From assembly GCA_964525635.1 (NCBI GenBank), contig CAZGJX010000015.1, positions 1 to 50,509 on the forward strand: a stretch of 50,509 bases of DNA. Reading direction: 5' to 3'. The notes beneath the pieces are model-generated. The model saw only the letters and a program-made list of their open reading frames with translations. It ran no database searches and was not told the DNA's origin. The stretch is from an uncultured archaeon (GTDB lineage: Archaea; Asgardarchaeota; Lokiarchaeia; Sigyniarchaeales; SOKP01). Of the stretch, positions 6,873-25,356 are shown in pieces (the stretch's first letter is position 1; each line of letters begins with the position of its first letter). The position numbers were made by a program, and so were the translations under genes.

Positions 6873-8282
6873 CTATCTAACTAACAAATCTTTTATCATA
6901 TCAGGAATTCTCCTTAAAAGACTAATATTAACCAAGCGTGTAAAATGAAATTTAAAACCATGCATTTTAAGAACTCTTTCAATACCCTGCCAAGGATTCT
7001 TTGAAAATAAGGTTTCTTTATACGCTTTAGATAAGTAATATTTTAACTCTTCTGATGATAGGTGTGGATACTTAATGACAGGATCTGACCAATTAAATTT
7101 GCTCCAATCTTTAGTGAATAATAAATTATCTTTTAAAACCTGCTCCATTACTTTTGTACCCGGAAATGGAGTTAATAAGGAAAAAGTGGGAAGATCGATA
7201 TCTAAAGATTTTGCAATTTTAATAGAAGACTCCAAATCCTCCTTTTTATCTTCAATATTAGCTCCTAAAATAATGTTACCCTGAACAAAATAACCTATAG
7301 CATGTAAGATTTTTAATGCTGATTGGATCTCAGCAAATTTAATTTGCTTATTTAATTTTTCTAATGTTCTATTAGAGAAACTTTCAAATCCCAAAAATAG
7401 ATGAATAAATCCTGCATCAGCCATTTTTTTAAATACTTCGGGATATTTTACAATCATATCAACACGAGCTTGTGTCATAAAATATTTATTAATTCTGTTT
7501 TTTATGATAGCATCACAAAATTCCATTACAAATTTCTTATTTACCATGAAATTATCATCAACTATAAAAATAAGACTAGCTCGATTTTTAATTTCTTTAG
7601 ACTTTAACTCTTTAATTATACTCTTGATTGTACGCTGTCGATATTTTTTTCTAAAGAAATGATGGATACAACAAAAATTACAAGAATATGGACAACCCCG
7701 ACTTGTTTCAATGCAATCGACTGGAAGAGCAAAATAATTATATTTTTTTTTTGCTATTTTTGATCTATAATAACGAGTTGGTATTAGAGTTTTTTTAAAA
7801 TCTATTAATTCACGGTCAAGATTATGGATAATTTTACCATTCTGTTTAAATGATAAACCAAGGATACCAATAGGATTATTTTTTTTAATTAATTCTCGAA
7901 ATGTTTTTTCACCTTCCCCTCTCACAATAAAATCGATTGAATGATATTCTAGTGTTTCATCAGGAACTAAAGTTGGATGCCATCCTCCAACAACAGTTTT
8001 AATATTATAACTTTTGACAATATCAGCGATTTTATAAACATTATATATCTGGGAACTAAATTTGCAACTAATTCCTACATAGTCAGGTTTAAAATCTTCG
8101 ATTATTTTTTTAAATTCTTTAGAGTTCCGTGCTTCTATCCGTTTATCGATTATTTTCACTACTGCTATATCATTTATATATGCGGCAATAGATTCTAATC
8201 CTAATGGAGGAGCAAGAATACTATATTGAGGTACAAATTTATTTACATTAGGACAGTCTGGCTCTACGAGTAAGACACGCAA
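6873..8282 (-). CDS. Cobalamin-dependent (class B) radical SAM protein, BchE/HpnP-like
   Basis: 'APPLGLESIAA', 'VVGGWHPT', 'RGEGE', 'ETSRGCPYSCNFC', 'VDDNF', 'LTPFPGT'. Confidence 0.9.
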   Translation of the reverse strand: MRVLLVEPDCPNVNKFVPQYSILAPPLGLESIAAYINDIAVVKIIDKRIEARNSKEFKKIIEDFKPDYVGISCKFSSQIYNVYKIADIVKSYNIKTVVGGWHPTLVPDETLEYHSIDFIVRGEGEKTFRELIKKNNPIGILGLSFKQNGKIIHNLDRELIDFKKTLIPTRYYRSKIAKKKYNYFALPVDCIETSRGCPYSCNFCCIHHFFRKKYRQRTIKSIIKELKSKEIKNRASLIFIVDDNFMVNKKFVMEFCDAIIKNRINKYFMTQARVDMIVKYPEVFKKMADAGFIHLFLGFESFSNRTLEKLNKQIKFAEIQSALKILHAIGYFVQGNIILGANIEDKKEDLESSIKIAKSLDIDLPTFSLLTPFPGTKVMEQVLKDNLLFTKDWSKFNWSDPVIKYPHLSSEELKYYLSKAYKETLFSKNPWQGIERVLKMHGFKFHFTRLVNISLLRRIPDMIKDLLVR

Positions 8283-8671: not shown

Positions 8672-10078
8672 ATTAATTTTCTTGTAGCAACAAATTGGGA
8701 TTTTAATCTCATAGAAGAGTTAGAAAAATATCCAGTAAATAATTTATATGGTGTCGCAGACTACTCTATTGTGGGTGGGGGGCGTCCTTCTTTTCTATTG
8801 CCAAAAATAACAGAAGAGAAAATACAAGAATATATAAGAGAAGTACATAAGAAAAAAATGAAATTTTCTTATTTATTAAATGCTCCTTGTATGAATAATA
8901 TGGAATATGACTCTCATTATCATAGAGTACTTATTGATTATATTCAATGGATTAGTGATATAAGGGCAGATGGTGTAATTGTAACCATTCCCTTTCTAAT
9001 ACAACTTATAAAAGAACAATTTCCTAATTTAAAAATCCGGGTATCTACAATAGCTCATGTTAACAGTGTAAATAGAGCAAAATTTTATGAAATGTTAGGA
9101 GCAGATGAGATAACTCCAGATGTAATGATTAATCGTGATTTTAAAACATTGGAAAGAATGCAAAAAACTGTTAAGTGCAAGATTGTTCTACTTCTCACTG
9201 ACGGATGTTTATATCAATGTCCTTTTAGATATTATCATTATAATATATTAGGACATGCATCCCAAGCACATCAACAATTTGAACGTAATTATATAGACAC
9301 TTGTATTTTAAATTGTAGTATTATTAAATTCTCTGATCCAGCAGAAGTACTTAAGGCACGATGGGTACGACCTGAGGATTTGGTTCACTATGAATCGATT
9401 GGAATAAATGACTTTAAAATAGCTGGACGTCGAATGTCAACTCCATGGATTGTTAGAGCTGTAAAGGCATTTTCCTCCCGAAAATATGAAGGCAATCTCA
9501 TTGATATAATACAAGGTTTTTCTATGTCGCATGGTGGTTTAGAACAAAAAGACCCCAACATTAAAATAAGTGAAACTCTTGGTAAAGAAGTAAAATCTAA
9601 ATTAATCATTGACAATACAAAATTAGATGGCTTTATAGATTTCTTTAAAAAGCAGAATTGTATAGCAATGTGTAATGATTGTAATTATTGTAATGAATGG
9701 GCAAAAAAAGCTGTTTATTTAGATAAAGAAGAATCTGCATCTTATGTAAAATCAATCAAGAATTATCTTGATGATATTATAACGAGTAGAGAATTTGGGC
9801 TTAATGTAGGGGAATCTGTAAAAAAAAGTAAAATTGGATTAAAATGGAATCTTAAAATTGAAGATATTTTTAACCAGCTAATAAAATTATCGCCTCCTCA
9901 ATTTCAAGGTATTGCAAAAGTGGCGATTTCATCATTAGCCGAAGAAAAAGCAAAAAAAAGAGGATCGCAAGAAGTTAATAATCAAGATATTTTAGAAGCA
10001 TTTATTGAAGGTACTCCTGGACCTTTTCAAGCCGAAATGAGGGAGGGTCTTAAAAAACATGGGCTTATAAAAGAGTAA
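8672..10078 (+). CDS. Peptidase U32-family Fe-S protein (UbiU/TrhP-like putative hydroxylase) with C-terminal DUF2621/PCP_red-like domain
   Basis: 'GGGRP', 'YLLNAPC', 'VSTIAHVNS', 'NRDF', 'GCLYQCPF', 'WVRPEDL', 'FKIAGRR', C-terminal CxxxCxxCxxC. Frame is open upstream of GTG 8771 to ATT 8672 ('INFLVATNWD', matching 'FRLSLACNW' of paralog 20932). Confidence 0.85.
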   Translation: MNFLVATNWDFNLIEELEKYPVNNLYGVADYSIVGGGRPSFLLPKITEEKIQEYIREVHKKKMKFSYLLNAPCMNNMEYDSHYHRVLIDYIQWISDIRADGVIVTIPFLIQLIKEQFPNLKIRVSTIAHVNSVNRAKFYEMLGADEITPDVMINRDFKTLERMQKTVKCKIVLLLTDGCLYQCPFRYYHYNILGHASQAHQQFERNYIDTCILNCSIIKFSDPAEVLKARWVRPEDLVHYESIGINDFKIAGRRMSTPWIVRAVKAFSSRKYEGNLIDIIQGFSMSHGGLEQKDPNIKISETLGKEVKSKLIIDNTKLDGFIDFFKKQNCIAMCNDCNYCNEWAKKAVYLDKEESASYVKSIKNYLDDIITSREFGLNVGESVKKSKIGLKWNLKIEDIFNQLIKLSPPQFQGIAKVAISSLAEEKAKKRGSQEVNNQDILEAFIEGTPGPFQAEMREGLKKHGLIKE

Positions 10079-10285: not shown

Positions 10286-11017
10286 ATGAAACATAGGAGC
10301 AGACATGAAAAATTAAAGATATATACAATATTGGTTATTACTATTTTATATCTTCCATTTACATTATTTCCTATGTTTTTAAAGGATATTCCCTTTTTCT
10401 CTTCATTAGTTAATAATTATATTATTGCTGGTAGATCATTTTTTATTTCTGATTTACCCTGTATTAATATATTATGGTTTTTGCCAGAAGAATGTCGTAT
10501 CACTTATTTTAGTATAGGGCATCTAATTGATATCTTCATTATAATAAATATTGTTCCTTGTGTTGAAACTACTATTTATCATTATATTGTAAAAGTATGT
10601 AATGAAGAAGAAACTAAAGAATTAAGTTATATGGATATTTATGTTAACAAATCTAGAGAGAAATTTAATTTATTATATTTTAATTTAAATTATGAAATTG
10701 ATATAGAAAATGATCATTCATATGAATCTCATAATATATATATTAAAAATTATCAAAATAACAAGCTTAGACTAAAGGAGTCAAATAATGACTACAATTA
10801 TCAAAAAATAAATGAATATATTCATACCAAAAATCAAAAGAGATTATTTAATAAAATATTTAATTCCAAATTAAAAACTACTTTTAAATTGTTTAATAAT
10901 TCTTTTAATCACTCTTTTTCTAAAAATACTCTGGTATTCCAGAAGAAAAATTATAATCAATATCCCAAAATTAAAACTATTTCTTATAAATATTCTCAAT
11001 GGGAGGGAAAAACATGA
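10286..11017 (+). CDS. Hypothetical protein, N-terminal hydrophobic segments, Asn/Lys-rich C-terminus
   Basis: 243-codon open frame in extremely AT-rich DNA; no recognisable motif. Confidence 0.45.
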   Translation: MKHRSRHEKLKIYTILVITILYLPFTLFPMFLKDIPFFSSLVNNYIIAGRSFFISDLPCINILWFLPEECRITYFSIGHLIDIFIIINIVPCVETTIYHYIVKVCNEEETKELSYMDIYVNKSREKFNLLYFNLNYEIDIENDHSYESHNIYIKNYQNNKLRLKESNNDYNYQKINEYIHTKNQKRLFNKIFNSKLKTTFKLFNNSFNHSFSKNTLVFQKKNYNQYPKIKTISYKYSQWEGKT

Positions 11018-11127: not shown

Positions 11128-12525
11128 ATGGAATGGAAAGAAGAAATTGAAAATTTATATGAAATAATCACAGATCAGACTCCTGAAGCGTTCCGTTCAT
11201 CAGTCAAAACTATGCTTCGTGAAGCATCTGAAAAAACAGCACGTCTTAGGAATTCTGGATTTGTGAGTAGAGATGATTTACTATCTGCTCTATTTGAAAT
11301 AACTCCTGAAGCATTTCAACCTACAGTTGTTGAAGATTTAAAAAAGATTGGTATTGATACTAATCGGTATATTAAATTGTCAGAAATTAGAAAAAAATAT
11401 TCACGAACATGGGATGAAATTAGTGGAGCATTTTTACCTGGAGTATATCATTTTACCATATATCTAACTGATCGATGCAACCAAAATTGTCTTCATTGTG
11501 CTGCTGCGGTAATGGAGAAACGTCCTGAATTACCCCCGGAAACTTGGATTGAAATTATTGAGGATCTTGAACAAAGCTTACGAAAACGTGGTCGTCGAGG
11601 ATGTTATATATGGTTTGGAGGAGAACCTACTATTCGTAAAGATCTTAAAGATTTAATAAAATATTGCGGTGAAAAGGGCTATTATCAAGCACTTGCAACT
11701 AATGGAATTTTGTTTAATGAAGAACTGGCGAAATTATGTGCAGATGTTAAGATGAGCCATGTTTTTATAAGTTATGATAGTACGGATCCTAAACGGGCTG
11801 CAAAAATTAGAGGACATCCAAAAGCACAAGAAGCGGCAGAAAAAGCCATAAATTTGGCTTCAAAATATGGGCTTTTTATCATTGGTAATGTAACCGCACA
11901 AAAAGAGAACTTCGATGAATTAGAAACCTTACAAAAATATTTTGAATCTAAGGGCGTAATTCCCTTTTACAGACCCCTAATCAAACAACGTTCGGCGGAT
12001 TTAAATTGGGAAGAAATCGGCTTAACTATTGATGAATATCGACAATTCTATGATTTTAAATATAAAAACATTATAGAGACTATCAGAAAAGGAGAAGCAA
12101 CTTCTCTTAATAAATTCTATACATGGGATATGGTACCATTCATGGAGTGTCCTATAAATGATGAGGAAAGGACTGCGATTGAATGGGGTACAGGATGCCA
12201 AGCCTGCCGCTCAATTTCCGGGATTGATACCAATGGAGATGTATTCCCTTGCGATTATCCCTCTGAATTAATCTTAGGCAACATTCTTGAGCAAAGTTGG
12301 GATGAGATTATGGAAACCGAAATGTTCAAAGCTATTAGAGATAGAAAAATAAAAGGGAAATGTGCTACTTGTCATCACCTTGACATGTGTGGTGGTGGTT
12401 GTCGGGTGCATGCTGAGAATGAAACTGGTGATTTTTTAGCGGCTCTCCCGTTTTGTTGGCATCAGAATGATCATAAACATGAAAAAAAAATAACAGAAAA
12501 AAAAGTGATTGAATTACTTGAATAA
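11128..12525 (+). CDS. Radical SAM/SPASM protein (PqqE/AhbC-like) with N-terminal DUF2621/PCP_red-like domain
   Basis: 'CNQNCLHC', 'GGEP', 'ATNG'; SPASM 'CQACR..GDVFPC..CATCHHLDMCGGGCR..CW'. Confidence 0.9.
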   Translation: MEWKEEIENLYEIITDQTPEAFRSSVKTMLREASEKTARLRNSGFVSRDDLLSALFEITPEAFQPTVVEDLKKIGIDTNRYIKLSEIRKKYSRTWDEISGAFLPGVYHFTIYLTDRCNQNCLHCAAAVMEKRPELPPETWIEIIEDLEQSLRKRGRRGCYIWFGGEPTIRKDLKDLIKYCGEKGYYQALATNGILFNEELAKLCADVKMSHVFISYDSTDPKRAAKIRGHPKAQEAAEKAINLASKYGLFIIGNVTAQKENFDELETLQKYFESKGVIPFYRPLIKQRSADLNWEEIGLTIDEYRQFYDFKYKNIIETIRKGEATSLNKFYTWDMVPFMECPINDEERTAIEWGTGCQACRSISGIDTNGDVFPCDYPSELILGNILEQSWDEIMETEMFKAIRDRKIKGKCATCHHLDMCGGGCRVHAENETGDFLAALPFCWHQNDHKHEKKITEKKVIELLE

Positions 12526-12565
12526 TTGAGTAATTTAATTAAAATAGATTGAAGGTTTGATATAT

Positions 12566-13966
12566 ATGGAATGGGAAAAGAAAACTGAAGAATTATTTGC
12601 GAGAATTGTAGAGAAAATGCCAGAAGGATTTCGTCCTTCAGTAAAACCATTGATTATAGAAGCAGCTGAAAAAAGATGCGTTGAGCGAAACGAATCTTAT
12701 ATTAATGAATCAGATGTAATTACAGGAATTTTTGATATTATTCCTGAAGCATTTAAATCTATAATGGTTGAAGATTTAAAATCTCTGAGTATTGATGTTG
12801 AACGATATATTGAGCTTAAGGAAATCAGAGATCGACTTAAATTATCATGGGAAAAATTGGAAAAAGCATTTCATCCGGGTAATATTCATTTTGCGATGTA
12901 TATTACCGATAGATGTAATATGAAGTGTATACATTGTGCCGCAGATGATCAAATACCTCGACAGGAGTTATCAAAAGAGCAATGGTGCCAGATAATGGAT
13001 AATATAGAATCTGGACTTAGATCCCAGGGTAGACATGCATGTTTCATTTGGTTTGGGGGAGAACCAACTCTACGAGAAGATATTGGGGATTTAATGAGCC
13101 ATTGCAAAGAAAAAGGATATTATCATGCTATTATTACTAATGGCGTTGAATTTGATGATAAATTCGCTAAAATGTGCAAAGAAAATGATTTAAGTCACGT
13201 ATTTGTAAGTTTTGACAGTGCCAATCCTAAGAAAAATGATCAATTACGCGGATATCCAAATTCATTAGAATACACCAAAAAAGCTATAGATAGTTGTTTG
13301 AAATATGGATTATTTGTATGTGCTTCTATTACTATTATGAAACAGAATATTGATGAATTGGAAGAACTTAATAATTTATCGTTAAAATGGGGAGCTCAAC
13401 CTTTTTTTAGACCAGTTGTTAAACAAAATCGCGCTGCAGAATATTGGGATGAAATTGGTTTGAATAAAGAAGAATATAAGAGGTTATATGATTATAAATA
13501 TAAACATGCTATTCAAAAAATTAGGCAAGGTGAAGCAGGGATCCTACCGGCTTATGAAATATATGAGATGATGCCCTTTATGAATTGCTTAAGAAATGAT
13601 AAGGAAATAACAGCGCTTGAATGGGGTGTAGGATGTTTAGCATGCAGAACGATGATGGGCGTTGGTGTAGATGGAACGCTATTTCCTACGGGATATCCTA
13701 CAAAATTAACTCTTGGTCATGGATTAAAGGACAAATTTGAAGATATATTAAATTCACAACTCTATAAAGATATTCGTGACAGAAAAAAAATTAAAGGAAA
13801 ATGCGCATCTTGTCATCATCTGAAATATTGCGGAGGGGGGTGTCGCGTCACTGCAGAATTTATAACTGGAGATTTTTTTGGTTCATTTCCTTTTTGTTGG
13901 CATGAAAATGACCATGAACATGAAGTTGAGACTAATAAAAAGAAGGAAATTGAATTACTTGAATGA
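12566..13966 (+). CDS. Radical SAM/SPASM protein, tandem paralog of 11128, with N-terminal DUF2621/PCP_red-like domain
   Basis: 'CNMKCIHC', 'WFGGEPT', 'CASCHHLKYCGGGCR'; starts 'MEWEKK' like 'MEWKEE'. Confidence 0.9.
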   Translation: MEWEKKTEELFARIVEKMPEGFRPSVKPLIIEAAEKRCVERNESYINESDVITGIFDIIPEAFKSIMVEDLKSLSIDVERYIELKEIRDRLKLSWEKLEKAFHPGNIHFAMYITDRCNMKCIHCAADDQIPRQELSKEQWCQIMDNIESGLRSQGRHACFIWFGGEPTLREDIGDLMSHCKEKGYYHAIITNGVEFDDKFAKMCKENDLSHVFVSFDSANPKKNDQLRGYPNSLEYTKKAIDSCLKYGLFVCASITIMKQNIDELEELNNLSLKWGAQPFFRPVVKQNRAAEYWDEIGLNKEEYKRLYDYKYKHAIQKIRQGEAGILPAYEIYEMMPFMNCLRNDKEITALEWGVGCLACRTMMGVGVDGTLFPTGYPTKLTLGHGLKDKFEDILNSQLYKDIRDRKKIKGKCASCHHLKYCGGGCRVTAEFITGDFFGSFPFCWHENDHEHEVETNKKKEIELLE

Positions 13967-14000
13967 TAAAGGAGATTGCTAAAGCATAGGGATGATAATA

Positions 14001-15416
14001 ATGCGAGTATTAATAATATCTGGAAGTCGAGAGATAGTACATGTAATGGTTTCACCCATAGGTGAAGCTTATCTAGCATCATATCTTCAATCACAAGGAC
14101 ATGAAGTTTTATTATTAGATCTAACTCTAAGTAATAATTTTAGAAATGATATTATAAAAGCTATTGATAATTTCAATCCTGAAGTGATAGGTCTTTCTAT
14201 TCGTAATATAGATTCAACAACATACCCTGGAAATTTATTTTTTTATTTACCTTTTAAAAATATTTTTAATTATATAAAAGAAAATATAGAACCTGAAATA
14301 CCCCTAATCTTAGGTGGGGCTGGGTTTTCAATATTCTCAGAAGAAATACTTAGAGATTTAAATCATGATATTGGAATCGTTGGAGAAGGAGAATATGCTT
14401 TTAATGAATTATTAAAATATATTGAAAAAGATAAAGATCCTCGAAAAATAGATAGAGGTATATGTTTTATAGATAAAAAAGGGAGATATCATCAAAAACC
14501 AACATGGCATATTAATAATTTAGATGATTTACCAAATCCTACAAGAGAATTGATGGATAATAATAATTATCTAATTGATCCAATAGATAAGGAAGGTAAT
14601 TTTTGGGGGAATATTCAAACTAAGCGTGGTTGCTCGAAAAACTGCATTTATTGTAGTTATCGATATATTGAAGGCCCTAAAGTTCGATATCGATCCCCAG
14701 AAAAAATAGCTGAAGAACTAGATTTAATGGTAAATAATTTTGGAATCAAAAATGTTTTCATTGTAGATAGTCTGCTCAATTTAAATTATAATCACTTAAA
14801 AAATACTTGTCATGAAATTATTAACCATAAAATTGATTTTAATTGGGGAGCTAATTATGCTCCAAGTAGTCAATATTTAGATTTATTACCCCTTATGAAA
14901 GAAAGTGGTGCAACTCATCTAGCAACGGGTATGGAATCCTTATCTGAAGATATATTAAAAAATATGAATAAAGATAGAATACCTAATGAGTCAATTCTAA
15001 CTTCTGAAAAGTGTATTGATCTAGAAATTGAACAATTAATCCATATAATTGTTGGAGGTCCTGGAGAAACTTCTGAAACAGTTAGAGCTTCTTTCGATCG
15101 ATTAGAAACTATTAGAAATTATAGAGGAAATATATGGCAAGGAGATGGAGATGTAATTATTTTCTTGGGAATGAGAATATATCCTCATACGCCTCTTCAG
15201 AAAATTGCTGAGAAAGATAAGGTGATTTCTAAAGGACAAAATTTACTTAAACCAACATTTTACATTTCTCCACAAATTAAAGAAGTAGATCTTTTTAGTT
15301 TAGTAAGAGAATATTGTGAAGTAAATCCAAGATGGATGGCTCCAGGATTAGGCTTAAATAATCCAGATGGCTTTGACGAAATGAGTCAAATCCAGTTTGC
15401 TCTATATCAAAAATAA
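14001..15416 (+). CDS. Cobalamin-dependent radical SAM protein, TsrM-like / lipid-biosynthesis B12-rSAM type (putative C-methyltransferase)
   Basis: 'LLDLT', 'IGLSIRNID', 'LGGAGFSIF', 'IQTKRGCSKNCIYC', 'GGPGET', 'GMRIYPHTPL', 'PTFYISP'. Confidence 0.82.
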   Translation: MRVLIISGSREIVHVMVSPIGEAYLASYLQSQGHEVLLLDLTLSNNFRNDIIKAIDNFNPEVIGLSIRNIDSTTYPGNLFFYLPFKNIFNYIKENIEPEIPLILGGAGFSIFSEEILRDLNHDIGIVGEGEYAFNELLKYIEKDKDPRKIDRGICFIDKKGRYHQKPTWHINNLDDLPNPTRELMDNNNYLIDPIDKEGNFWGNIQTKRGCSKNCIYCSYRYIEGPKVRYRSPEKIAEELDLMVNNFGIKNVFIVDSLLNLNYNHLKNTCHEIINHKIDFNWGANYAPSSQYLDLLPLMKESGATHLATGMESLSEDILKNMNKDRIPNESILTSEKCIDLEIEQLIHIIVGGPGETSETVRASFDRLETIRNYRGNIWQGDGDVIIFLGMRIYPHTPLQKIAEKDKVISKGQNLLKPTFYISPQIKEVDLFSLVREYCEVNPRWMAPGLGLNNPDGFDEMSQIQFALYQK

Positions 15417-15471: not shown

Positions 15472-16974
15472 ATGAGTAAAAAAGCAAGAAGCGGATTACC
15501 ATTTGGTAAAGTTACTCCGTTAGAAATTATAGAGAAAATTGGAAAAGATGGATTATCTGGAGGAATTGAAGATGTCTGTCTCTTTCCTACATATAGTTGT
15601 AATCTTAATTGTTATATGTGTCATGTACAACATGTACGCGATAAGGATAACAATTATATATCAATGGATGATTGGAAGGCAGCTTTTAAAAATCTAAATG
15701 TATCTAAAATGTTTCACCTAGGGGGAGAACCTTTTGTAAGAGAAGATATGATGGATTTAATTGAATTTTTTGATTCCAAAGGGATTAATCAAATTCTTTC
15801 CACCAATGGTCAAAATATTACTGAGTCAACTGCTAAAAGGCTAGCTGCATTGAAGAATTTAGCTTGTATACAAGTATCTCTTAATGGTACAGAAGAAATT
15901 GATGGAAAAATAAGAGGATCTCCTCATTCATATAGAAGAACTGTAGAGGGTATAAAACTATTGAAAAAAGCTGGTATACAAACATGGATTCATGCCGTTA
16001 TTTTAAATGAAAATATCAATGATCTAGTAAATATAGTGAAACTTGGTACAGAATTAAAGGTGGATATGATTAATTATCTTTTTGGTCAGGTAATGTCTGA
16101 GCAAGATGCAGAAGAAACAAGAGCTTCTATTAAAAAGTGGACAGGTGAAGATGTAAATGTTGGAGGATATATAGGAGAAATAAATTATTCTGAAGAAGAA
16201 TTAGTGAATAGTATTAACGCTGTAAAAGAAGAAGCGAAGAAAACGGGAATTCAAGTAATGTTTTTCCCTAGAATTTTTGGAGAGCATCCAGAAATATATT
16301 GGCGAGGTACTTTACTTGAACAAGAGAGGCCTATTTGTCAAATGACATTAATGCCCCCCCTCACACCTATAATTGGTCCTGAAGGGGATGTTGTTGCGTG
16401 TTGTATTATTGATAAGAGTTTTGGCAATATTAAAGAAAAAAGTCTTGAAGAAATTTGGGATTCTGAGACCGTTCGTAATTTTAGGAAAGGATTGATTAAT
16501 GATAAATTAATGGCAGTATGTAAACGATGTCCAAGTGGAGATTTAATAAAGGTTGATGCAAAGAAAGATACATCCTTATCGAATAAAGAAGATTGGAACT
16601 CTTATTTATCATTATTAACTAAAGAACTTAATAATTTATCTGAGTTACAACCGATATTAGAAAAAGTTTCTCCTATTATATTTCAATATCAAATTACTGA
16701 TCAACCAAGTTTCAATTATTGGCATTACTTTAAAAAAGATGGTGTTAGTTTGGGTTTAGGTGAAATTGATGATGATGATGTCTCAAAATTAATCCATAAA
16801 ACTGATTTTGAGACATTAAAGAGTGTAAATGCTGGTATAAACAATCCAATCCAAGCTACGATGGAGGGAACTTATGAAGTTACTGGAGACATGACTAAAT
16901 TAATGGCTTGTGCTCCACTTATTCCAGTAACAGCAAAAGCTCATAATGTTGTAATTAAAGATTTTTTAAAATAA
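15472..16974 (+). CDS. Radical SAM/twitch-type protein fused to C-terminal SCP2 lipid-binding domain
   Basis: 'CNLNCYMC', 'LGGEP', 'STNG'; 'C...GDVVACC..GNIKEKSLEEIW...CKRC'; C-term 'DFETLKSVNAGINNPIQATMEGTYEVTGDMTKLM' (SCP2 pattern). Confidence 0.85.
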   Translation: MSKKARSGLPFGKVTPLEIIEKIGKDGLSGGIEDVCLFPTYSCNLNCYMCHVQHVRDKDNNYISMDDWKAAFKNLNVSKMFHLGGEPFVREDMMDLIEFFDSKGINQILSTNGQNITESTAKRLAALKNLACIQVSLNGTEEIDGKIRGSPHSYRRTVEGIKLLKKAGIQTWIHAVILNENINDLVNIVKLGTELKVDMINYLFGQVMSEQDAEETRASIKKWTGEDVNVGGYIGEINYSEEELVNSINAVKEEAKKTGIQVMFFPRIFGEHPEIYWRGTLLEQERPICQMTLMPPLTPIIGPEGDVVACCIIDKSFGNIKEKSLEEIWDSETVRNFRKGLINDKLMAVCKRCPSGDLIKVDAKKDTSLSNKEDWNSYLSLLTKELNNLSELQPILEKVSPIIFQYQITDQPSFNYWHYFKKDGVSLGLGEIDDDDVSKLIHKTDFETLKSVNAGINNPIQATMEGTYEVTGDMTKLMACAPLIPVTAKAHNVVIKDFLK

Positions 16975-17005: not shown

Positions 17006-18514
17006 ATGAATGAAAAACAAGTTGGATGTGACGTATCTCTACGAGAAGCAATGCCCCTTGGAAAGGATATACCATTAAATGTAATAAAGCAAATAATTGA
17101 AGATGGTCTTTCTGGGGAATTTAGTGATGTATGCTTTTATGCAAGTTTCAACTGTAATTTAAATTGTTATATGTGCCTTATAAAACATATGAAAGGTCGA
17201 AAAATAACTCCCATGTCTATGGAGCAAATAAAGGAGGGATTTAAAGATGCTAAAGTCTTATTTCACCTTGGAGGAGAACCATGGGTTATGAGTAATATGA
17301 TGGAAATGATAGAATATTTCGATGCTAATGGTGTTAATCAAATAATGTCCACAAATGGCACTAAAATTACAAAAGAAATCGCTGAGAAATTAGCTGGATT
17401 AAAACATTTTGTTAATATACAAGTCTCATTGAACGCATCAAATGGAATAGATGGCAAAATTAGGGGATGGCCAAAATCTTTCGAAAAAACTGTTGAGGGT
17501 ATAAAGATTCTTGTTGATGCAGGCTTATCTACATGGATACATTGCACAATTGTAAATGAAAATATTAACGATTTAGCAAATGTAGTTAAACTTGGTGCAG
17601 AGCTAGGAGTTAAAGCAGTCAATTTCATCTTTGCACATATAGTTAGTGAGGAAGAAATTAAGGCTTCTAAAGAGCTAATGAAGAAATGGATTGGAGAAGA
17701 AGTTGAAATAGGTGGATATGTGGGAGAATTAACATATTCTGAAGAAGAATTGATAAACAGTATTAATGCAGCAAAAGAAGAAGGAAAAAAACATGGAATT
17801 ACTGTGATGTTCTTTTCAAAGTTATTTGGTGATAAGCCTGAAATATATTGGCGAGGAACGTTATTAAAGCAAGAACGACCGATTTGCCAATTAACTTTAA
17901 TGCCCCCAATGACACCTAATATTGGACCAGATGGTTCAGTATATAACTGCCCATATATAGTCAAAAGCTTTGGAAACATTACTGAAATGCCCCTTAAAGA
18001 GATTTGGGATTCTGATTCAATTCGTGCTTTTCGGAAAGGAATGATAAAGGACAAGTTATTACCTATATGTAGACGTTGCCCATGTAGTGATATGGTTGAT
18101 TTATCTTTATCCAAAGAACATGAATTAACAGATATAGTAAAATGGAAGATATATCTTGAAAGATTAACTAAAGAATTGAATAATATGTCTGAAGTTCCAC
18201 CAATTTTGAATAGCATTGAACCTACTATTTTCCAATATCACCTTAATGATCATCCAGAGTTGAATTTTTGGCATGCCTTTGATAAAAATGGTATTCGGAT
18301 AGGAATGGGTGAAAATACACAGGATAGTGACTTTATTAAGCTTATCCATAAAGCTGATTTTGAGATTGTGAGAAAGGTAAATTCTGGCGAACAGAATCCT
18401 GTCCAAGCAACTATGGCAGGACTTTATATAGTTGATGGAGATATGGCTAAATTAATGGCTTGTGCTCCAATTTTACCTTTGCAAGTAAAAGCTCATGAAA
18501 AAGTAATAAAATAA
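17006..18514 (+). CDS. Radical SAM/twitch-SCP2 fusion, tandem paralog of 15472
   Basis: 'CNLNCYMC'; near-identical 'PEIYWRGTLL.QERPICQ.TLMPP'; SCP2 'NPVQATMAGLYIVDGDMAKLM'. Confidence 0.85.
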   Translation: MNEKQVGCDVSLREAMPLGKDIPLNVIKQIIEDGLSGEFSDVCFYASFNCNLNCYMCLIKHMKGRKITPMSMEQIKEGFKDAKVLFHLGGEPWVMSNMMEMIEYFDANGVNQIMSTNGTKITKEIAEKLAGLKHFVNIQVSLNASNGIDGKIRGWPKSFEKTVEGIKILVDAGLSTWIHCTIVNENINDLANVVKLGAELGVKAVNFIFAHIVSEEEIKASKELMKKWIGEEVEIGGYVGELTYSEEELINSINAAKEEGKKHGITVMFFSKLFGDKPEIYWRGTLLKQERPICQLTLMPPMTPNIGPDGSVYNCPYIVKSFGNITEMPLKEIWDSDSIRAFRKGMIKDKLLPICRRCPCSDMVDLSLSKEHELTDIVKWKIYLERLTKELNNMSEVPPILNSIEPTIFQYHLNDHPELNFWHAFDKNGIRIGMGENTQDSDFIKLIHKADFEIVRKVNSGEQNPVQATMAGLYIVDGDMAKLMACAPILPLQVKAHEKVIK

Positions 18515-18571: not shown

Positions 18572-19744
18572 ATGAAATGGAAATCTGAAATTAAACAACT
18601 TTTTGAGAATGTGGTCTCAAATATTCCTGAAATGGTAAGACCAGCTGTAAAACCTACACTTTTTGAAGCTGCAGAAAAAAAATGTATGGAGAGAAATGGA
18701 AAAGAAGTAGCTGAAGTAGATTTAGTAGTAGCGTTGTTTGAAGTGACACCACCAACTTTTCAACCAACTATGATTGAAGATCTAAAAAAAGTTGGGGTTG
18801 AATATGATAAATACCTAGCAAAAGTGGAATCTAATTTTAAGTGTAATACTGATCTTAATCAGATGATAAAGGATATATCAACGATTTGTGATGTTACTGG
18901 AGTAAAATGTGATAATGAAGCAATCTGGAAAGCTTTCAATGCTTATGAAAAATTTTTCAAAGGAGCTCCATTATCAATTAGAACGACGACTAAACCCGTT
19001 GAAAAAAGGGATGTAGCAGTAAGATATGTAGAATTTTTTGTACCTCATTATCCAGATCCTTATACAACAGCTATCAATGAAGGATTAATTAAGAAGGATG
19101 GACACGCTATCCATAAGATGATAATAGAGGTAATAAACACGTTTGACATAATGGGATATGGTGTAGATGTAGATGCGAGTAATGGATTATCAAAGATTTG
19201 GCCATTTATAGTACCTGGATCAATTGATCCAATCTATTCAATGAAGTCATACCCAAAAAGTATGAAAAAATATCAAGAATACTTTAATAAGCATGGACTA
19301 ACAGCTTTTAGTTTATTTGCATTTGATTTCCTTCATAATACAGTGAACATCTATTTCATGCTTAAAAAACCATCCAAATCTACTTATGAAAATTGTATTG
19401 CTCTTGTAGAGGATTTAGGATTTAAACCCGACTCCAAAGAGGTTATGGAAGCTTGTTGTGAAGCTGCCCATCTAAATTATACATTTAATTGGGATACAGA
19501 AAAAATCGAGCGTGTATGTTTTGGGATAACATGTCAAGATGCTAAAAAGATTCCAGTACATCTACATCCATTGATAGAAGAATTTGTTGAAAAAACACCA
19601 CTCCAAAGTGATTCAAATAAATTTATCTGGGGAGTAACCTTCTCCCAAAACGGTCGCTATTATAAGATTGAAAACGATTATAATGGAACAATGGTCGATT
19701 TCTTAGAAATGGGTTGTAAAGCGGGTCTTGATAAATTTAACTAA
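18572..19744 (+). CDS. Soluble ABBA aromatic prenyltransferase (NphB/CloQ, PTase_Orf2-like) with N-terminal DUF2621/PCP_red-like domain
   Basis: Co-linear with remembered NphB/CloQ motifs: 'DPYTTAINEGL', 'YGVDVDASNGLSKIWPF', 'FNKHGL', 'FDFLHNTVNIYF', 'LVEDLGF', 'YTFNWDTEKIERVCFG', 'WGVTFSQNGRYYKIENDY'. Confidence 0.87.
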   Translation: MKWKSEIKQLFENVVSNIPEMVRPAVKPTLFEAAEKKCMERNGKEVAEVDLVVALFEVTPPTFQPTMIEDLKKVGVEYDKYLAKVESNFKCNTDLNQMIKDISTICDVTGVKCDNEAIWKAFNAYEKFFKGAPLSIRTTTKPVEKRDVAVRYVEFFVPHYPDPYTTAINEGLIKKDGHAIHKMIIEVINTFDIMGYGVDVDASNGLSKIWPFIVPGSIDPIYSMKSYPKSMKKYQEYFNKHGLTAFSLFAFDFLHNTVNIYFMLKKPSKSTYENCIALVEDLGFKPDSKEVMEACCEAAHLNYTFNWDTEKIERVCFGITCQDAKKIPVHLHPLIEEFVEKTPLQSDSNKFIWGVTFSQNGRYYKIENDYNGTMVDFLEMGCKAGLDKFN

Positions 19745-19787: not shown

Positions 19788-20939
19788 ATGCAGATAATAA
19801 TCGATGGAGACTATAATAAAGAATTAATTTCTCAAATTAAAAGGAAAGATTTACCAGTTTCACATATTATTGTTCATGTTCCTCAAAATCCAATTGGAAA
19901 TAGTTCAATTTTTCTGCCAGAAATCCTTCCTTCTCTAAAGGAATTTAGAGATTATACTAAGATTATTCAAGATAATGGAATAATTCCCATAGCAGGTATT
20001 GATTCAACATGTCAAGGAAATTTGGAAGCCCATGCTAAACAAAATAAAGCAATTAATATATTATTTGAAAACCTACATGAATTAGAATACTCTAATTACC
20101 TAATATCATCCCCAAATAATGCAGCATTTATAAATGCAAATTTTCCTGAAGATAAAATTTACTTATCTTATTCTCAATATATCACATCATTAAATCGTGC
20201 AAAAATTTTTTTTGAATTGGGAGTAGACAATATTATAATTCACCCTGACATAATTAGGAATTTTAATATATTAAAGAATTTCTTGAAATTAAAGCAAAAT
20301 CTAAATAATAATGAAAAAATTGATTATATTCTTCCATTAAATCTTGGGTGCAATTGGGGATGTATTCATTGGTATGAACATCATAATCTTCAAAGTCATC
20401 GAACAATAAAGTCATCTATTTTACCAAATCAAAATAATATTTCTGACATTGAGGATGAGTTTGATTATCCTATCCTTGATTGTTGGAGGAAGCGTCTTAA
20501 ACAACCTTCTGAAATTCTTAAAGCAGGATGGATATCCCCATTTAATATTCAATTATATCATGATTTGGGGTATGAAAAATTCGTACTTTTTACCAGTAGA
20601 TTTTCTACGGAGAAGATATTGAATATCATTAAATCATATATTGATAAATTACATATGGATGATTTTAAAGAATTTCTGAATATTCCTCAACCTTATGGGG
20701 ATTATTGGTCAGGAGAAGAAATTCATAATTCAATGATCTTTCTTGATCCAAATAATATCAGAGAATTTTGCGATAATTTCCCCTATAATACTCATTATCC
20801 ATTTGAGAAGCAAATTAATGAATATTGTAATAAATATATTGATAAATTTAATAATAAACACATTAAAGAACGAGAAGAAATCCTCAAAATAATAATGGAA
20901 AAGAAAGAAAAACTATATAAAGGTGTATTTAATGGCTGA
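19788..20939 (+). CDS. Divergent U32-family protein (possibly non-catalytic partner)
   Basis: Aligns with the other U32s ('ITSLNRAK', 'IRNF', 'LGCNWGC', 'EILKAGWISP') but lacks GxGRP and FKIxGRR; ATG 19788 preferred. Confidence 0.72.
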   Translation: MQIIIDGDYNKELISQIKRKDLPVSHIIVHVPQNPIGNSSIFLPEILPSLKEFRDYTKIIQDNGIIPIAGIDSTCQGNLEAHAKQNKAINILFENLHELEYSNYLISSPNNAAFINANFPEDKIYLSYSQYITSLNRAKIFFELGVDNIIIHPDIIRNFNILKNFLKLKQNLNNNEKIDYILPLNLGCNWGCIHWYEHHNLQSHRTIKSSILPNQNNISDIEDEFDYPILDCWRKRLKQPSEILKAGWISPFNIQLYHDLGYEKFVLFTSRFSTEKILNIIKSYIDKLHMDDFKEFLNIPQPYGDYWSGEEIHNSMIFLDPNNIREFCDNFPYNTHYPFEKQINEYCNKYIDKFNNKHIKEREEILKIIMEKKEKLYKGVFNG

Positions 20940-22992
20940 AAAATTTCGCTTATCATTAGCATGTAATTGGAAGATTGACTTATTGAATCTAATAGATCTG
21001 GATCAATCGTTAAAAGATAATATTCATGATTTATATGGTACTTATGATTCTAGTTTTACTGGATCAGGGAGACCCTTTTTTTTAATGGCAAAGAGAGAGA
21101 GATTAGAGGTAGAAACATACATAAATAAAGTTCATGATTTAGGATTGAAATTCACTTGGTTATGGAATGGTATGTGTCAAGGATATTACAAATTTAATTC
21201 TGAACATCAAACTAAAGCCCTAGAGGAATTAGATTGGTTAGGAGATTTAAGTGTAGAATATTTAACAATAACAGATCCTTACCTTGCCGAGTTTGCAAAA
21301 AATCATAAACCAAAATTAAAATTGAAAGTTTCAGTTATTTCTGAAGTAAATTCATTATCACGTGCTTTAGATTGGCAAGAGATTATTGGTGATGAAGGTG
21401 TTTTAACATTATCTATAATGATAAATCGTAATTTTCCTCTCTTAGAAGAGATTAGGAATAGTGTAAAATGTGATATTGAACTACTTACAAATGATTGTTG
21501 CCTGAATGATTGTCCTTTTAGATTTTTTCATTATACAGAATGCTCACACGCTAGCCAAACTCATGATATACTAGAAGGCTATTATAATGATTGGTCAACA
21601 ATTGCTTGTCAAAATCAAAAATGTTTCAATCCAGAACAGATAATTATGTCTAAATGGATTCAACCATCAGATCTGGATAAGTATATTAATATTGGAATAA
21701 ATTATTTTAAAATTTCAGGAAGGAGATATGGAACTGATTGGTTATATAAGGCATTAAAAGCATATAGTAAAAAATCATTTAATGGGAATCTCGGTGATAT
21801 TTTTAATGGGTATTCTTTTGTTTCAGATCCTTTAATACTAGCTGGAAATCAATTTTCTGAATTTTCTATTAAACAAGAAAAAATGGAAGTAGATGCTGAT
21901 AATCAAAGTATAATGTTAAGTGTTCCAGATTTTAATGCAGTGTTAAAAGGTGATGAATTAAATGATTTTATATCTAATATACCTTTCCAAGGAACTAAAT
22001 GTACTGAAATTTGTGGTATTAAATGTCACTACTGTAATGATTATGCAAAGAAAGCTTATTATGTTCCTCCTGATAAATTATCAGAGTCATATAGAAATTA
22101 TATGGCATTTCTTTATGATTATCTAAATTTAGGAGAAATGTTTCTTTCAAAAGAAGAAAGAACTCTTAAAATTCCAATTAGAGAGATAGAATCAGATACT
22201 TATTTTGGAATCGCTTGGTTATCTGAAGCAGAAACTTTTTTAGAGGAGGTTATGATTATAATTCCTGAATCAATGCAACTTGCCGCTAAAAAAGGTATTG
22301 GATTCACAGCAGAACGAACTGCAGAAAAACAAGGTTTAAACCATATTGATCTAAATTTACTTATCTCTATACTTATTCAATTAGTACCTCAACCTTTTAA
22401 ACATGATCTTCTCGATTTCTTGGTAGAAAAAGACATCGATTTATCACATTTTATCAATGAAGAAGATATAGAATACATGAAATCTTTACCATATGGTACT
22501 GATTTAATGGCTCAAAAAGCAAAACAAAAAAGATTAGTAGAGCCTAATTCAAATTTAAATATAAATAATTTAAATATACAAAAAAATAAGGAAGTGAAAT
22601 TAAATATGGATACAAAAGAAGAATGGGAGGCGTACCTTACACGCTTTATGAAAGCCTATAATGAATTACCAGATTTATCTTCATTATTAAAACCTATCTC
22701 CCCTTTGATATTTCAGTACAATCTTTCAGATAAACCTGAAATGAATTATTGGCAATTTGTTGAAGAGGATAAAATGAGATGGGGAATGGGAAATTATGAT
22801 GGAAATGATGCTCCCAAGATTATCCACAAAACTGACTTTGAGACATTGATAAAAGTTAATTCTGGTGAATCAGATCCAATTCAAGCTACTATGGCAGGTA
22901 ATTATACTGTTGAAGGAGATGTAACTAAACTTATGGCATGTGCTGCTTTACTCCCTCTTAACGCAAAAGCCCATAATAAGGCTATAGAATGA
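20932..22992 (+). CDS. U32-family Fe-S protein + DUF2621/PCP_red-like domain + SCP2 domain (triple fusion)
   Basis: 'GSGRP', 'CLNDCPF', 'FKISGRR', 'CTEICGIKCHYC'; middle 'AWLSEAETFLEE...IPESMQLAAKK...VPQPFKHDL'; C-term 'DPIQATMAGNYTVEGDVTKLM'. Overlaps the upstream stop. Confidence 0.85.
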   Translation: MAEKFRLSLACNWKIDLLNLIDLDQSLKDNIHDLYGTYDSSFTGSGRPFFLMAKRERLEVETYINKVHDLGLKFTWLWNGMCQGYYKFNSEHQTKALEELDWLGDLSVEYLTITDPYLAEFAKNHKPKLKLKVSVISEVNSLSRALDWQEIIGDEGVLTLSIMINRNFPLLEEIRNSVKCDIELLTNDCCLNDCPFRFFHYTECSHASQTHDILEGYYNDWSTIACQNQKCFNPEQIIMSKWIQPSDLDKYINIGINYFKISGRRYGTDWLYKALKAYSKKSFNGNLGDIFNGYSFVSDPLILAGNQFSEFSIKQEKMEVDADNQSIMLSVPDFNAVLKGDELNDFISNIPFQGTKCTEICGIKCHYCNDYAKKAYYVPPDKLSESYRNYMAFLYDYLNLGEMFLSKEERTLKIPIREIESDTYFGIAWLSEAETFLEEVMIIIPESMQLAAKKGIGFTAERTAEKQGLNHIDLNLLISILIQLVPQPFKHDLLDFLVEKDIDLSHFINEEDIEYMKSLPYGTDLMAQKAKQKRLVEPNSNLNINNLNIQKNKEVKLNMDTKEEWEAYLTRFMKAYNELPDLSSLLKPISPLIFQYNLSDKPEMNYWQFVEEDKMRWGMGNYDGNDAPKIIHKTDFETLIKVNSGESDPIQATMAGNYTVEGDVTKLMACAALLPLNAKAHNKAIE

Positions 22993-23109: not shown

Positions 23110-23940
23110 AAAATGGTCTCTATAAGAATTATATAGAGTAAAAATCTTTTTTTATTAAATAAAAAAACTATAAATAAAAATAGTGAGGATAAAAAAAATG
23201 TTTTGTCCAAGTTGTGGTGAAGAGTTAAGAGAAGATAATCAAAGATTTTGCCACACTTGTGGAATTAATCTTCTTAGTAATATAGATGGCCCTCAACAAT
23301 ATACTAAAGTTATTCAAAAAACACCAAATTCAATTTCAAAATCAAATCTAAAAAATATTGAAATAATAAAAGGTCAACAAGGACACCATATTAAAATAGA
23401 ACGAATAGGACCATATTCAAAAAAGAGTTTAGCTTATTCAATTGTGTCTTTGGGATTAACTGCTTTGGCAATTGTTTTCATTTCGACAGGATTTGTTTAC
23501 AGTTTAATACGTAATAATATCCAATTACTTATCATACCAAGAACGATATTTGTAATTTCAATTAATATTGTAGGTTTGGTTTTTGGAATTCAATCTAAAA
23601 AGAATAGTTTAAAAGCAGGACGATTTGAAGAAATAAATGCTGTAGAGAAAGTAGGGAGTGTATTATGTATTTTTGGGATAGTAGCTAATATTATTGGTAT
23701 TATAATAGGTTTTTTAATATACCCTGCATCTATGATTATCTTGAATAATAATATACAATTTATTTATTAATTTTAATATTTTAAAAAATTCTTTTTTCTT
23801 ATTTTATCAATAAAATCTAGGTTTTTTGTAAGAATCTACTTTTTAATAATAAATGGTCTATATTAAAATTATATACACTATATCTTTATTTTTATTAAAA
23901 AAAAAAAAATAAATAAAATTAGTTAGGAGGAAAGAAATCT
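23110..23940 (+). repeat. Duplicated upstream regions of the two tandem zinc-ribbon genes (about 23110-23197 and 23851-23940)
   Basis: 'aaatggtctctataagaattatatagag...tttattaaa...taaataaaaatagtgagg' vs 'aaatggtctatattaaaattatatacac...tttattaaa...taaataaaattagttagg'. Confidence 0.65.
23198..23770 (+). CDS. Zinc-ribbon membrane protein, paralog 2
   Basis: 'MFCPSCGEEL..FCHTCG', 'YSKKSLAYSI', 'EKVGSV', 3 TM. Confidence 0.8.
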   Translation: MFCPSCGEELREDNQRFCHTCGINLLSNIDGPQQYTKVIQKTPNSISKSNLKNIEIIKGQQGHHIKIERIGPYSKKSLAYSIVSLGLTALAIVFISTGFVYSLIRNNIQLLIIPRTIFVISINIVGLVFGIQSKKNSLKAGRFEEINAVEKVGSVLCIFGIVANIIGIIIGFLIYPASMIILNNNIQFIY

Positions 23941-24513
23941 ATGTTTTGTCCAAGTTGTGGTTCAGAATTGAGAGAAGGTAATCAAAAATATTGTCATTGT
24001 TGTGGAACTAATCTTCTTAACGCTACTGAAGACACTCAATTATATACTAGAATTTCTCAAAAAACACCAAAAAAAATACCAAAATCTACAATAGAATACT
24101 CAACTGTTCCAGAAATTAACAAAAAACAAATTAAACCAAAAGGTGGGATAGGGGCCCATTCAAAAAGATGTTTAGCATTTGCAATTGTATCATTGGCTTG
24201 CGCTGGTGTTGCTTCTGTTTTAGGTACAAGTTTAAATTTTTTCTTTAATTGGTTTTTTGATGGTAATAGTAGGATTTTATTAATACCTCGATTTATACCA
24301 ATGACATCTATTTATATAGTTGGATTAATTTTTGGAATTTTGTCTAGAACGAATAGTTCTAAAGCAGGATTAAAAGAATCAAAAAATAATGTTGAGAAAG
24401 TTGGAAGTATACTTGGAATCTTAGGAATTATCTCTAATGCAATTGGGCTCGCTGGTGTATTGATATTTGCTTTATCCTTCATTGATTTTCCATCTATTCC
24501 ATACATCGATTAA
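23941..24513 (+). CDS. Zinc-ribbon membrane protein, paralog 3
   Basis: 'MFCPSCGSEL..YCHCCG', 'HSKRCLAFAI', 'EKVGSI'; SD AGGAGG upstream. Confidence 0.82.
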   Translation: MFCPSCGSELREGNQKYCHCCGTNLLNATEDTQLYTRISQKTPKKIPKSTIEYSTVPEINKKQIKPKGGIGAHSKRCLAFAIVSLACAGVASVLGTSLNFFFNWFFDGNSRILLIPRFIPMTSIYIVGLIFGILSRTNSSKAGLKESKNNVEKVGSILGILGIISNAIGLAGVLIFALSFIDFPSIPYID

Positions 24514-24588: not shown

Positions 24589-25356
24589 TTATTTTATATT
24601 TTTTGCTAATTCATAATAAATCTCTTTTTTTGTTACATATTGATTAATACGTTTTAAACTTCGACGTGCTGTCAAATGTCTTCCACTTGTTAATACAGAT
24701 ATAAAATTTAGAGTTTTTATTTTTCCTTTTTTTAATTTTCTTGTCAAATAAATTATAGAATCAGAAAATACTTTATCGATACCTAAAGAATTTGGTGGTT
24801 GTTTAAATCCACCTGCTTTGAAAAAGATTTCTCTTCTAACAATAATATTACATCCCCAAAGTTCAGGATAACCATAAAGGGTTTTAAAAAAATACCACAT
24901 ATGCATTGAAATATTTTGAAAAAAATAGCTTGTTATTGTAAATTTCATTGTACCTAATTTAAAAGAGAGAGCTTTTCCATTGAAGTATTTAGCTCGAGCA
25001 CTACATGCAAAAAGATTATCATCTTTTTTAAATATTCTATAGATATTGTGTAAAAAATAAGGTTCTATTATTGTATCTGCATCTAAAAACAAAAGTATAA
25101 TCCCTGAAGTTTTTGGTACAACATAATTTATTTGATTTACCTTACCTTTTTTGGGTGAAATGTACACTTTAACATATTTTTGCGAAATATTGACTGTATT
25201 ATCAGAACTCTGTCCATCAACTACAATAATTTCATAAGGAATGCAACATCTTTGATTTTTTGCTGCCAATAAAGTTTCTTCTATATTAGATTCTTCATTA
25301 TAAGTTGGTATAATTATAGATATTATTGGCTTATATTTCTGATTTAAGGGTTCCAT
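24589..25356 (-). CDS. Glycosyltransferase family 2
   Basis: 'IIIPTYNEE', 'VVDGQSSDNT', 'FLDAD', 'GGF', 'TSGR'. Confidence 0.9.
   Translation of the reverse strand: MEPLNQKYKPIISIIIPTYNEESNIEETLLAAKNQRCCIPYEIIVVDGQSSDNTVNISQKYVKVYISPKKGKVNQINYVVPKTSGIILLFLDADTIIEPYFLHNIYRIFKKDDNLFACSARAKYFNGKALSFKLGTMKFTITSYFFQNISMHMWYFFKTLYGYPELWGCNIIVRREIFFKAGGFKQPPNSLGIDKVFSDSIIYLTRKLKKGKIKTLNFISVLTSGRHLTARRSLKRINQYVTKKEIYYELAKNIK

Follow-up and report, generated by a model that had tools for sequence, protein, structure and literature searches.

We describe U32a, a gene in a 50,509-nucleotide stretch of DNA (the window; contig CAZGJX010000015.1) from an uncultured archaeon of the Lokiarchaeia, whose 686-residue product joins a U32 domain, a small helical module shared with neighboring enzymes, and an SCP2 lipid-carrier domain (positions 20932 to 22992; all features given here are on the plus strand). 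We found that this triple fusion is old and real and that U32a is an optional member of a conserved gene cluster. We give about even chances to the reading in which an anaerobic pathway makes a prenylated aromatic lipid and uses U32a as an optional tailoring subunit, with a gene that also provides a free SCP2 product.

A single open frame spans positions 20923 to 22992, and the alignment of orthologs places the start of U32a at ATG 20932, which follows an AAGGTG site and lies in an 8-nucleotide overlap with the stop of the preceding gene. Pfam recognized the two outer domains above their cut-offs, U32 (PF01136) with 29.2 bits (cut-off, 22.4) and SCP2 (PF02036) with 28.0 bits (cut-off, 21.3; residues 580 to 674), while residues 428 to 507 matched DUF2621 with 16.3 bits, under the cut-off of 27.7. 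The AlphaFold 2 model (predicted local distance difference test score, 76.5) consists of a barrel, a helical bundle, a low-confidence linker (residues 536 to 556), and an SCP2 fold. Its top Foldseek match is 5d88, the U32 protein Mk0906, which is also the best structure by sequence (E, 5e-6), and it also matches the UbiJ-SCP2 structure 6h6p (6h6p/6h6o, Foldseek probability 1.0). By the PF01136 gathering score and its triosephosphate isomerase (TIM) barrel of the U32 type, U32a belongs to the Peptidase U32 superfamily, and by the PF02036 gathering score and fold (Atlas, 0.93) its C-terminal domain is an SCP2 domain. Among 60 orthologs of 50 to 72% identity, those with names carrying Promethearchaeota or allied Asgard labels, 55 have exactly the U32-module-SCP2 order, 2 a doubled SCP2, and 1 an extra module; the 2 that miss SCP2 (605 and 433 amino acids) are both on short contigs and are probably cut. 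The proteins P0002, P0009, and P0049 (L129:8526-11129) show either a doubled SCP2 or an additional module after SCP2. Thus, Pfam, the model with its Foldseek matches, and 58 of the 60 orthologs confirm the fusion of U32, docking domain, and SCP2 claimed in a preliminary description of this DNA (the docking role itself aside), and the same 58 orthologs rule out an assembly artefact, the origin named beforehand as grounds for dropping the claim. That U32a is the only protein with both shared modules holds in the window and fails in the genome, since contig C76 carries another such cluster, with a 51% identical paralog of identical domain order.

The SCP2 domain (22606 to 22992; 128 amino acids) is about 70 to 80% identical to stand-alone SCP2 proteins of related clusters, and an in-frame ATG at 22606 coincides with the start position of those stand-alone genes. 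It is preceded by a Shine-Dalgarno-like site, GGAAGTGA (22590 to 22597; site and start codon together, 22590 to 22608), which matches GGAGGTGA at 7 of 8 positions, a score that 74 (0.34%) of the genome's 21,783 internal start codons attain. A start codon with such a ribosome site is kept in 13 of 25 fused genes; the Val within the site is coded GTG in all 13, against a genome background of 9%, and the Leu at the start position is coded TTG in site-keeping genes, against 10%. The internal start is absent from one clade that has an SCP2 gene apart from the fusion, from a gene accompanied by an SCP2-bearing prenyltransferase, from duplicates that have a sister with the start intact, from one truncated locus, and from second-cluster paralogs, that of U32a on C76 included. 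An SCP2 family search of this genome returned no stand-alone SCP2 of the cluster type and only two distant ones, and a promoter scan, with models of bacterial promoters for an archaeal host, gave nothing above chance. This pattern is consistent with, though no proof of, selection for a free carrier, and it suggests that the U32a gene yields two products, the fusion and a free SCP2.

The U32 barrel and its clade

The TIM barrel (about residues 1 to 300; 20932 to 21831) holds the invariant residues C82, C190, C194, C226, H200, H206, and D220. Its four Cys are invariant across U32a and two other U32 proteins of the window, U32b and U32x, and occur in 131 to 148 of 148 aligned clade representatives. 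Their spacing in U32a, CX107CX3CX31C, is not the usual one for U32; C190 and C194 align with C169 and C176 of UbiU, which are Fe-S ligands there, and we infer that the barrel carries a predicted [4Fe-4S] site. A tail motif, C357-x3-C361-x3-C365-x2-C368 (CTEICGIKCHYC; residues 357 to 368; 22000 to 22035), is probably a second metal site, Fe-S or Zn; its four Cys are invariant in 37 orthologs, and it is present in 59 of the 60 U32a orthologs and 137 of the 148 representatives of the group, here called the 8-Cys clade. RlhA, with its essential additional C-terminal cysteines (PMC5727448), provides a loose precedent. The extra 4-Cys motif reported earlier for U32a and for the protein at 8672 (U32b; CIAMCNDCNYC) is present in both, and the invariant Cys support a second metal site; the alignment, though, marks it as a trait of the clade and not as a peculiarity of these two proteins.

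U32a had also been likened to UbiU and UbiV fused to UbiT. Its U32 domain gave no hit at E of ≤10 with the UbiU and UbiV models (NF047963 and NF047965; E. coli controls, 560 and 363), its SCP2 domain gave none with the UbiT model (NF047962; control, 154; hhalign probability, 0.9%), and its Cys spacing departs from the UbiU motif CX6CX16CX38C and the UbiV motif CXnCX12CX3C (PMC6747719). With the TrhP model NF011996 (cut-off, 534), U32b scored about 31 bits and U32a gave no hit, and Pfam did not find DUF3656, which marks RlhA, in U32a. A profile of the clade scored a phage protein at 203 bits, TrhP at 49, RlhA at 30, UbiU at 10, and UbiV at -2. In the U32 tree, for which the preliminary description had asked, and which contains one E. 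coli sequence per canonical family with UbiV on a long branch, the 8-Cys clade is split at 100/100 from UbiU, UbiV, TrhP, and RlhA and from the two canonical U32 proteins encoded elsewhere in this genome, which group with RlhA/TrhP/UbiU. The approximately unbiased (AU) test rejects a grouping of U32a with UbiU/UbiV (p-AU, 4.2e-5), so that the likeness to UbiU/V-UbiT is to be read as analogy only. The clade possibly corresponds to PepU32#6, a subfamily with poorly conserved Cys.

At E of ≤1e-30, the clade has 720 representatives, found in Asgard archaea, anaerobic biosynthetic clusters, and T4-like phages. Its members adjoin acyl carrier protein (ACP) and AMP ligase genes, type II polyketide synthase (PKS) genes, B12-radical S-adenosylmethionine (SAM) genes, and methylthioadenosine-salvage-like genes, and 222 phage records have one within their arabinosyl-hydroxycytosine cluster; the substrates of the clade are probably varied small molecules. 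The earlier proposal of a lipid rather than an RNA substrate therefore fits U32a, with its SCP2 fusion, its prenyltransferase neighbor, and two separate canonical U32 genes that can cover RNA hydroxylation, and does not extend to a clade that includes phage nucleotide-modification and ACP/PKS-cluster members. Mosigvirus-type T4-like phages (L115:4992-6161, phage Bas47) and phage-like metagenome contigs (L109-L114) encode full-length 8-Cys U32 proteins inside nucleotide-modification clusters. As maker of 5-hydroxycytosine, the phage U32 was rejected, because a thymidylate-synthase homolog performs the cytosine hydroxylation with flavin and O2 (PMC13326640); as that enzyme needs O2, the U32 might instead supply 5-hydroxy-deoxycytidine monophosphate as a substitute under anaerobic conditions.

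The distance of the clade from all hydroxylating U32s and its extra predicted metal site would also suit a different role, in which 8-Cys U32 proteins carry out other Fe-S redox chemistry (reduction, dehydration, or electron supply for radical-SAM enzymes) on an SCP2-bound intermediate, and for gp50, the phage RB69 member, the listed putative function is "sugar or heterocycle reductase," while cytosine hydroxylation proceeds without it (PMC13326640). However, every characterized U32 subfamily is linked to O2-independent hydroxylation (PMC10990095), some clusters are linked to shikimate genes, and a second redox site would fit a two-electron oxidation as well, RlhA too having essential extra C-terminal Cys. 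We regard this role as rather unlikely.

Gene cluster and proposed pathway

The order of genes in the window is U32b, a membrane open reading frame (ORF), two module-radical SAM/SPASM enzymes, a B12-radical SAM, two radical SAM-SCP2 fusions, a module-prenyltransferase, U32x, and U32a, an arrangement shared by about 30 Asgard loci; literature searches found no paper describing this cluster. The prenyltransferase (18572 to 19744) joins the module to an aromatic prenyltransferase of the ABBA type related to AmbP1, NphB, and CloQ (PF11468, E of 5.5e-55; AmbP1, E of 1.6e-37), and it is present in nearly every intact locus, contrary to the lack of lipid-related neighbors that had been set beforehand as counting against the claim. 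Together with the two module-radical SAM/SPASM enzymes (11128 to 13966) it forms the most widely kept core. U32b (8672 to 10078), made of U32, tail motif, and module, is about 33% identical to U32a and present in nearly all clusters; it has no ATG, GTG, or TTG at its conserved N terminus, and its apparent ATT start (8672 to 8674), behind AAGGTGA, points to either a noncanonical initiation codon or an error in sequencing. The B12-radical SAM (13992 to 15416) scores 271 bits with TIGR04072 (cut-off, 360) and 207 with BzaD (cut-off, 450), the two radical SAM/SPASM-SCP2 fusions (15472 to 16974 and 17006 to 18514) are optional in related clusters, and among the additional genes of those clusters are methyltransferases and as many as three U32-module genes. 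The conserved cluster around U32a, with its ABBA prenyltransferase and its radical-SAM enzymes, makes a hydrophobic substrate likely, probably a prenylated aromatic. The homologous cluster L051 abuts a complete shikimate-to-chorismate-mutase operon, a homolog of whose first aldolase adjoins up to six Loki loci, and our genome encodes chorismate synthase and chorismate mutase. Beside the L051 operon stands a 999-amino-acid module-radical SAM/SPASM-module-prenyltransferase-SCP2 chain (L051:5307-8306), which is a better Rosetta-stone protein than U32a.

U32x (19788 to 20939), a divergent U32 paralog that overlaps the start of U32a, was silent in the Pfam search; it keeps C82, C190, C194, C226, H200, H206, and D220 and lacks the FKIxGRR motif and three of the four tail Cys. 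Of the 24 genomes tested, its orthologs (E, <1e-130) occur in the 5 further U32a-bearing ones and in no other. It lies directly upstream of U32a in nearly every locus, the exceptions being one extra copy at a contig edge and one duplicate that follows another U32a, and in L129 the pair stands together away from the cluster, among three glycosyltransferases. From the overlapping genes and the perfect co-occurrence, we infer that U32a and U32x likely form a heterodimer.

In the pathway that we propose, the ABBA prenyltransferase would prenylate a shikimate-derived ring, SCP2 would keep the greasy intermediate in the cytosol, radical-SAM enzymes would decarboxylate or methylate it, and U32b would add one hydroxyl without O2. 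Where present, U32a and the adjacent U32x would add a further hydroxyl by Fe-S chemistry, with prephenate as the probable oxygen donor by analogy with UbiU/V, which bind [4Fe-4S] (PMC6747719) and need prephenate (PMC10990095). The fused SCP2 would present the substrate to U32a, and the internal start would yield free SCP2 for the other enzymes. Several points weigh against this reading. The substrate is deduced from neighbors only, the Cys spacing of U32a is unlike that of all hydroxylating U32s, and known ABBA enzymes take short prenyl donors; in the literature searched we found no measured activity for any member of the 8-Cys clade, and we know of none. No more than 4 to 5 independent events account for the lost internal starts, and two loci do not follow the pattern: L062 lost it without a visible other source of SCP2, and the L070 gene keeps it despite a separate SCP2. 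The dispensability of gp50 for cytosine hydroxylation (PMC13326640) belongs here as well.

A bolder and, in our estimate, improbable form of the proposed pathway is an entirely soluble O2-free assembly line of Lokiarchaeia for a quinone-like redox lipid. In it, free SCP2 from the U32a gene would hand on an intermediate, bound noncovalently, among enzymes that recognize it by the module, and a two-cluster U32 heterodimer would hydroxylate that intermediate. A search of this genome for MqnA found none, and its three UbiA-family genes, judged by their context, seem to encode enzymes of ether-lipid synthesis or glycosylation. There is thus space for a novel quinone, though none is shown, and a quinone-like product would be a redox lipid of an Asgard archaeon with that gene content. 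The patchy distribution described below would be equally well explained by a dispensable secondary metabolite.

The same hydroxylase chemistry might instead act on an archaeal membrane ether lipid or glycolipid (a hydroxylated or methylated archaeol or glycerol dialkyl glycerol tetraether) and not on a free aromatic. SCP2 binds many lipids, the B12-radical SAM is nearest to TIGR04072, "lipid biosynthesis," many B12-radical SAM and glycosyltransferase genes surround the cluster, and the L129 pair has its three glycosyltransferase neighbors. We consider such a substrate unlikely, since the most constant neighbor is an aromatic prenyltransferase, the core also occurs in bacteria, which lack such ether lipids, and the proposed U32 mechanism begins with oxidation of an aromatic ring (PMC10990095).

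Among the surrounding genes, two more B12-radical SAM genes (5171 to 6676 and 6873 to 8282) travel with the cluster, one of them TIGR04190-like (249 bits against 500), and a polysaccharide deacetylase (3545 to 4300) and a GT2 glycosyltransferase (24589 to 25356) lie near it. Repeated zinc-ribbon membrane proteins (4545 to 5117, 23183 to 23770, and 23941 to 24513) flank it here and in many related loci. An orphan ORF (10286 to 11017), upstream of the first radical SAM gene in most clusters, has a conserved hydrophobic N-terminal part of about 110 amino acids (LGxLIDI motif) and a highly divergent, low-complexity tail; it is possibly a membrane anchor or leader. The second cluster of this genome (L050:5544-14944; G000, contig C76) contains two prenyltransferases, two module-radical SAM genes, U32x, and the U32a paralog.

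Distribution of U32a, SCP2, and the shared module

In a GTDB scan that used an alignment of the prenyltransferase, the cluster was found in 22 of 68 genomes of the family, in none of the 3 of the same genus, and as at most one weak match outside the class among 300 genomes sampled; the prenyltransferase, accompanied by one or two radical SAM/SPASM genes, extends to Thermoplasmata, Aminicenantes, Clostridia, and other bacteria. Of the 25 genomes with the cluster, 6 encode a full-length U32a (this one, G109, G132, G183, G270, and G279). In the 14 U32a-less cluster genomes inspected, a stand-alone SCP2 of about 130 amino acids, about 70 to 80% identical to the C-terminal domain of U32a, occupies the slot, and elsewhere SCP2 is fused to either end of the prenyltransferase or to a radical SAM-prenyltransferase chain, or is doubled. 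No intact cluster inspected lacks SCP2, be it a protein of its own or a part of U32a, the prenyltransferase, or a radical SAM; SCP2 is the constant of the cluster, and its fusion partner varies. Stand-alone SCP2 genes with in-frame linker or module fragments upstream (L037:7720-8262 and L043:13898-14377) and a lone 75-amino-acid module (L040:13605-13832) look like deletion remnants of longer fusions.

These counts bear on the role of a hub, assigned to U32a in the preliminary description, in which the triple fusion would physically join module-tagged and SCP2-tagged enzymes in one complex. U32a is the sole protein in the window with both modules, the helical module recurs on three unrelated folds, and module-SCP2 fusions arose repeatedly (P0061, P0062, and L083). 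U32a is, however, missing from 19 of the 25 cluster-bearing genomes, the two radical SAM-SCP2 genes to be bridged are themselves rare, and some clusters (L052, L055, and L126) have U32-module proteins where no SCP2 was seen in the vicinity. The cluster is maintained in genomes in which no protein combines the two modules, which makes an obligatory hub unlikely, and in some other loci the prenyltransferase itself carries both; we consider the hub quite improbable and U32a an optional add-on of the pathway.

The module (22207 to 22461; about 85 amino acids), a candidate docking element, is like DUF2621 and PCP_red (2l09 and 2kru) in being a small helical bundle with W and P hallmarks and unlike them in its length of about 85 amino acids, its scores below both Pfam cut-offs (DUF2621, 21.5 against 27.7; PCP_red, 13.6 against 32.5), and its repetition on several enzymes of one operon. 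DUF2621 was matched weakly by 17 of 18 module copies, comparison with DUF2621 clusters in the Atlas gave TM scores of 0.84 to 0.91, and the module is confidently modeled as a helical bundle related to DUF2621/PCP_red. A Foldseek search with it gave no match at E of ≤0.001, and a fold search gave middling helical matches only (best Z, 8.2, to the BchI lid; PCP_red 2l09, 6.0, and 2kru, 5.3), so that no function follows. A complex prediction for module and SCP2 scored 0.00, which counts neither for nor against docking. The module might recognize carrier proteins in general. In L055:6511-11557 and L126:2454-9722, U32-module proteins lie directly downstream of ACP and AMP ligase genes or in a type II PKS-like cluster, with no SCP2 annotated in either locus. 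Substrate recognition by the module within a system that modifies tetrapyrroles or peptides, as the resemblance to PCP_red of BchB and the best radical SAM models (AhbD/NirJ2, about 130 bits) might suggest, is very improbable, since those scores are far under the cut-off of 500, porphobilinogen deaminase (HemC) was not found in this 100%-complete genome, and there is no conserved short precursor among ORFs of 50 to 70 amino acids or more.

Comparison with known systems

To our knowledge, natural-product clusters with ABBA enzymes (AmbP1/AmbP3, NphB, and CloQ), of whose family the window prenyltransferase is a clear member, use O2-dependent tailoring, and none has a U32, an SCP2, or the shared module. 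Most U32 subfamilies are without known function, and as of 2024 direct in vitro activity had been shown for no U32 (PMC10990095). Here, the cluster neighbors indicate the substrate class and the soluble prenyltransferase could make the substrate, which brings an in vitro test of prephenate-dependent hydroxylation within reach; the pathway and the uncharacterized 8-Cys clade are worth work, even as the hub and the kinship with UbiU/V-UbiT fail.

Among U32 proteins, Mk0906 (5d88) is the nearest structure, and the Mosigvirus/RB69 gp50 type comprises the nearest annotated sequence relatives, tail motif included; U32a differs from both in having the module and SCP2, and the phage gene stands in an arabinosyl-hydroxycytosine cluster. 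TrhP and RlhA share the U32 barrel, TrhP being the best-scoring named model (about 30 bits) and RlhA having extra C-terminal Cys, but the cut-off of 534 is not approached, DUF3656 is absent, and canonical U32s are encoded separately in the genome. The UbiT-UbiU-UbiV system, which hydroxylates in ubiquinone synthesis independently of O2, is like the one described here in having two adjacent U32 genes and an SCP2 carrier downstream of aromatic prenylation (PMC6747719, PMC10990095), and the predicted U32a-U32x heterodimer would be a true parallel with UbiU-UbiV. A UbiT-UbiU fusion with the second U32 adjacent is known from Zymomonas mobilis (PMC6747719), and with modules shuffled freely a U32-SCP2 fusion alone is unsurprising. 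Unlike UbiTUV, the present proteins form a separate U32 clade with another Cys motif and a 4-Cys tail, their SCP2 is not recognized as UbiT, a soluble ABBA prenyltransferase replaces UbiA, an extra shared module is present, and the U32a system is optional, patchy, and archaeal. By analogy, then, its working logic would copy that of UbiTUV using unrelated parts.

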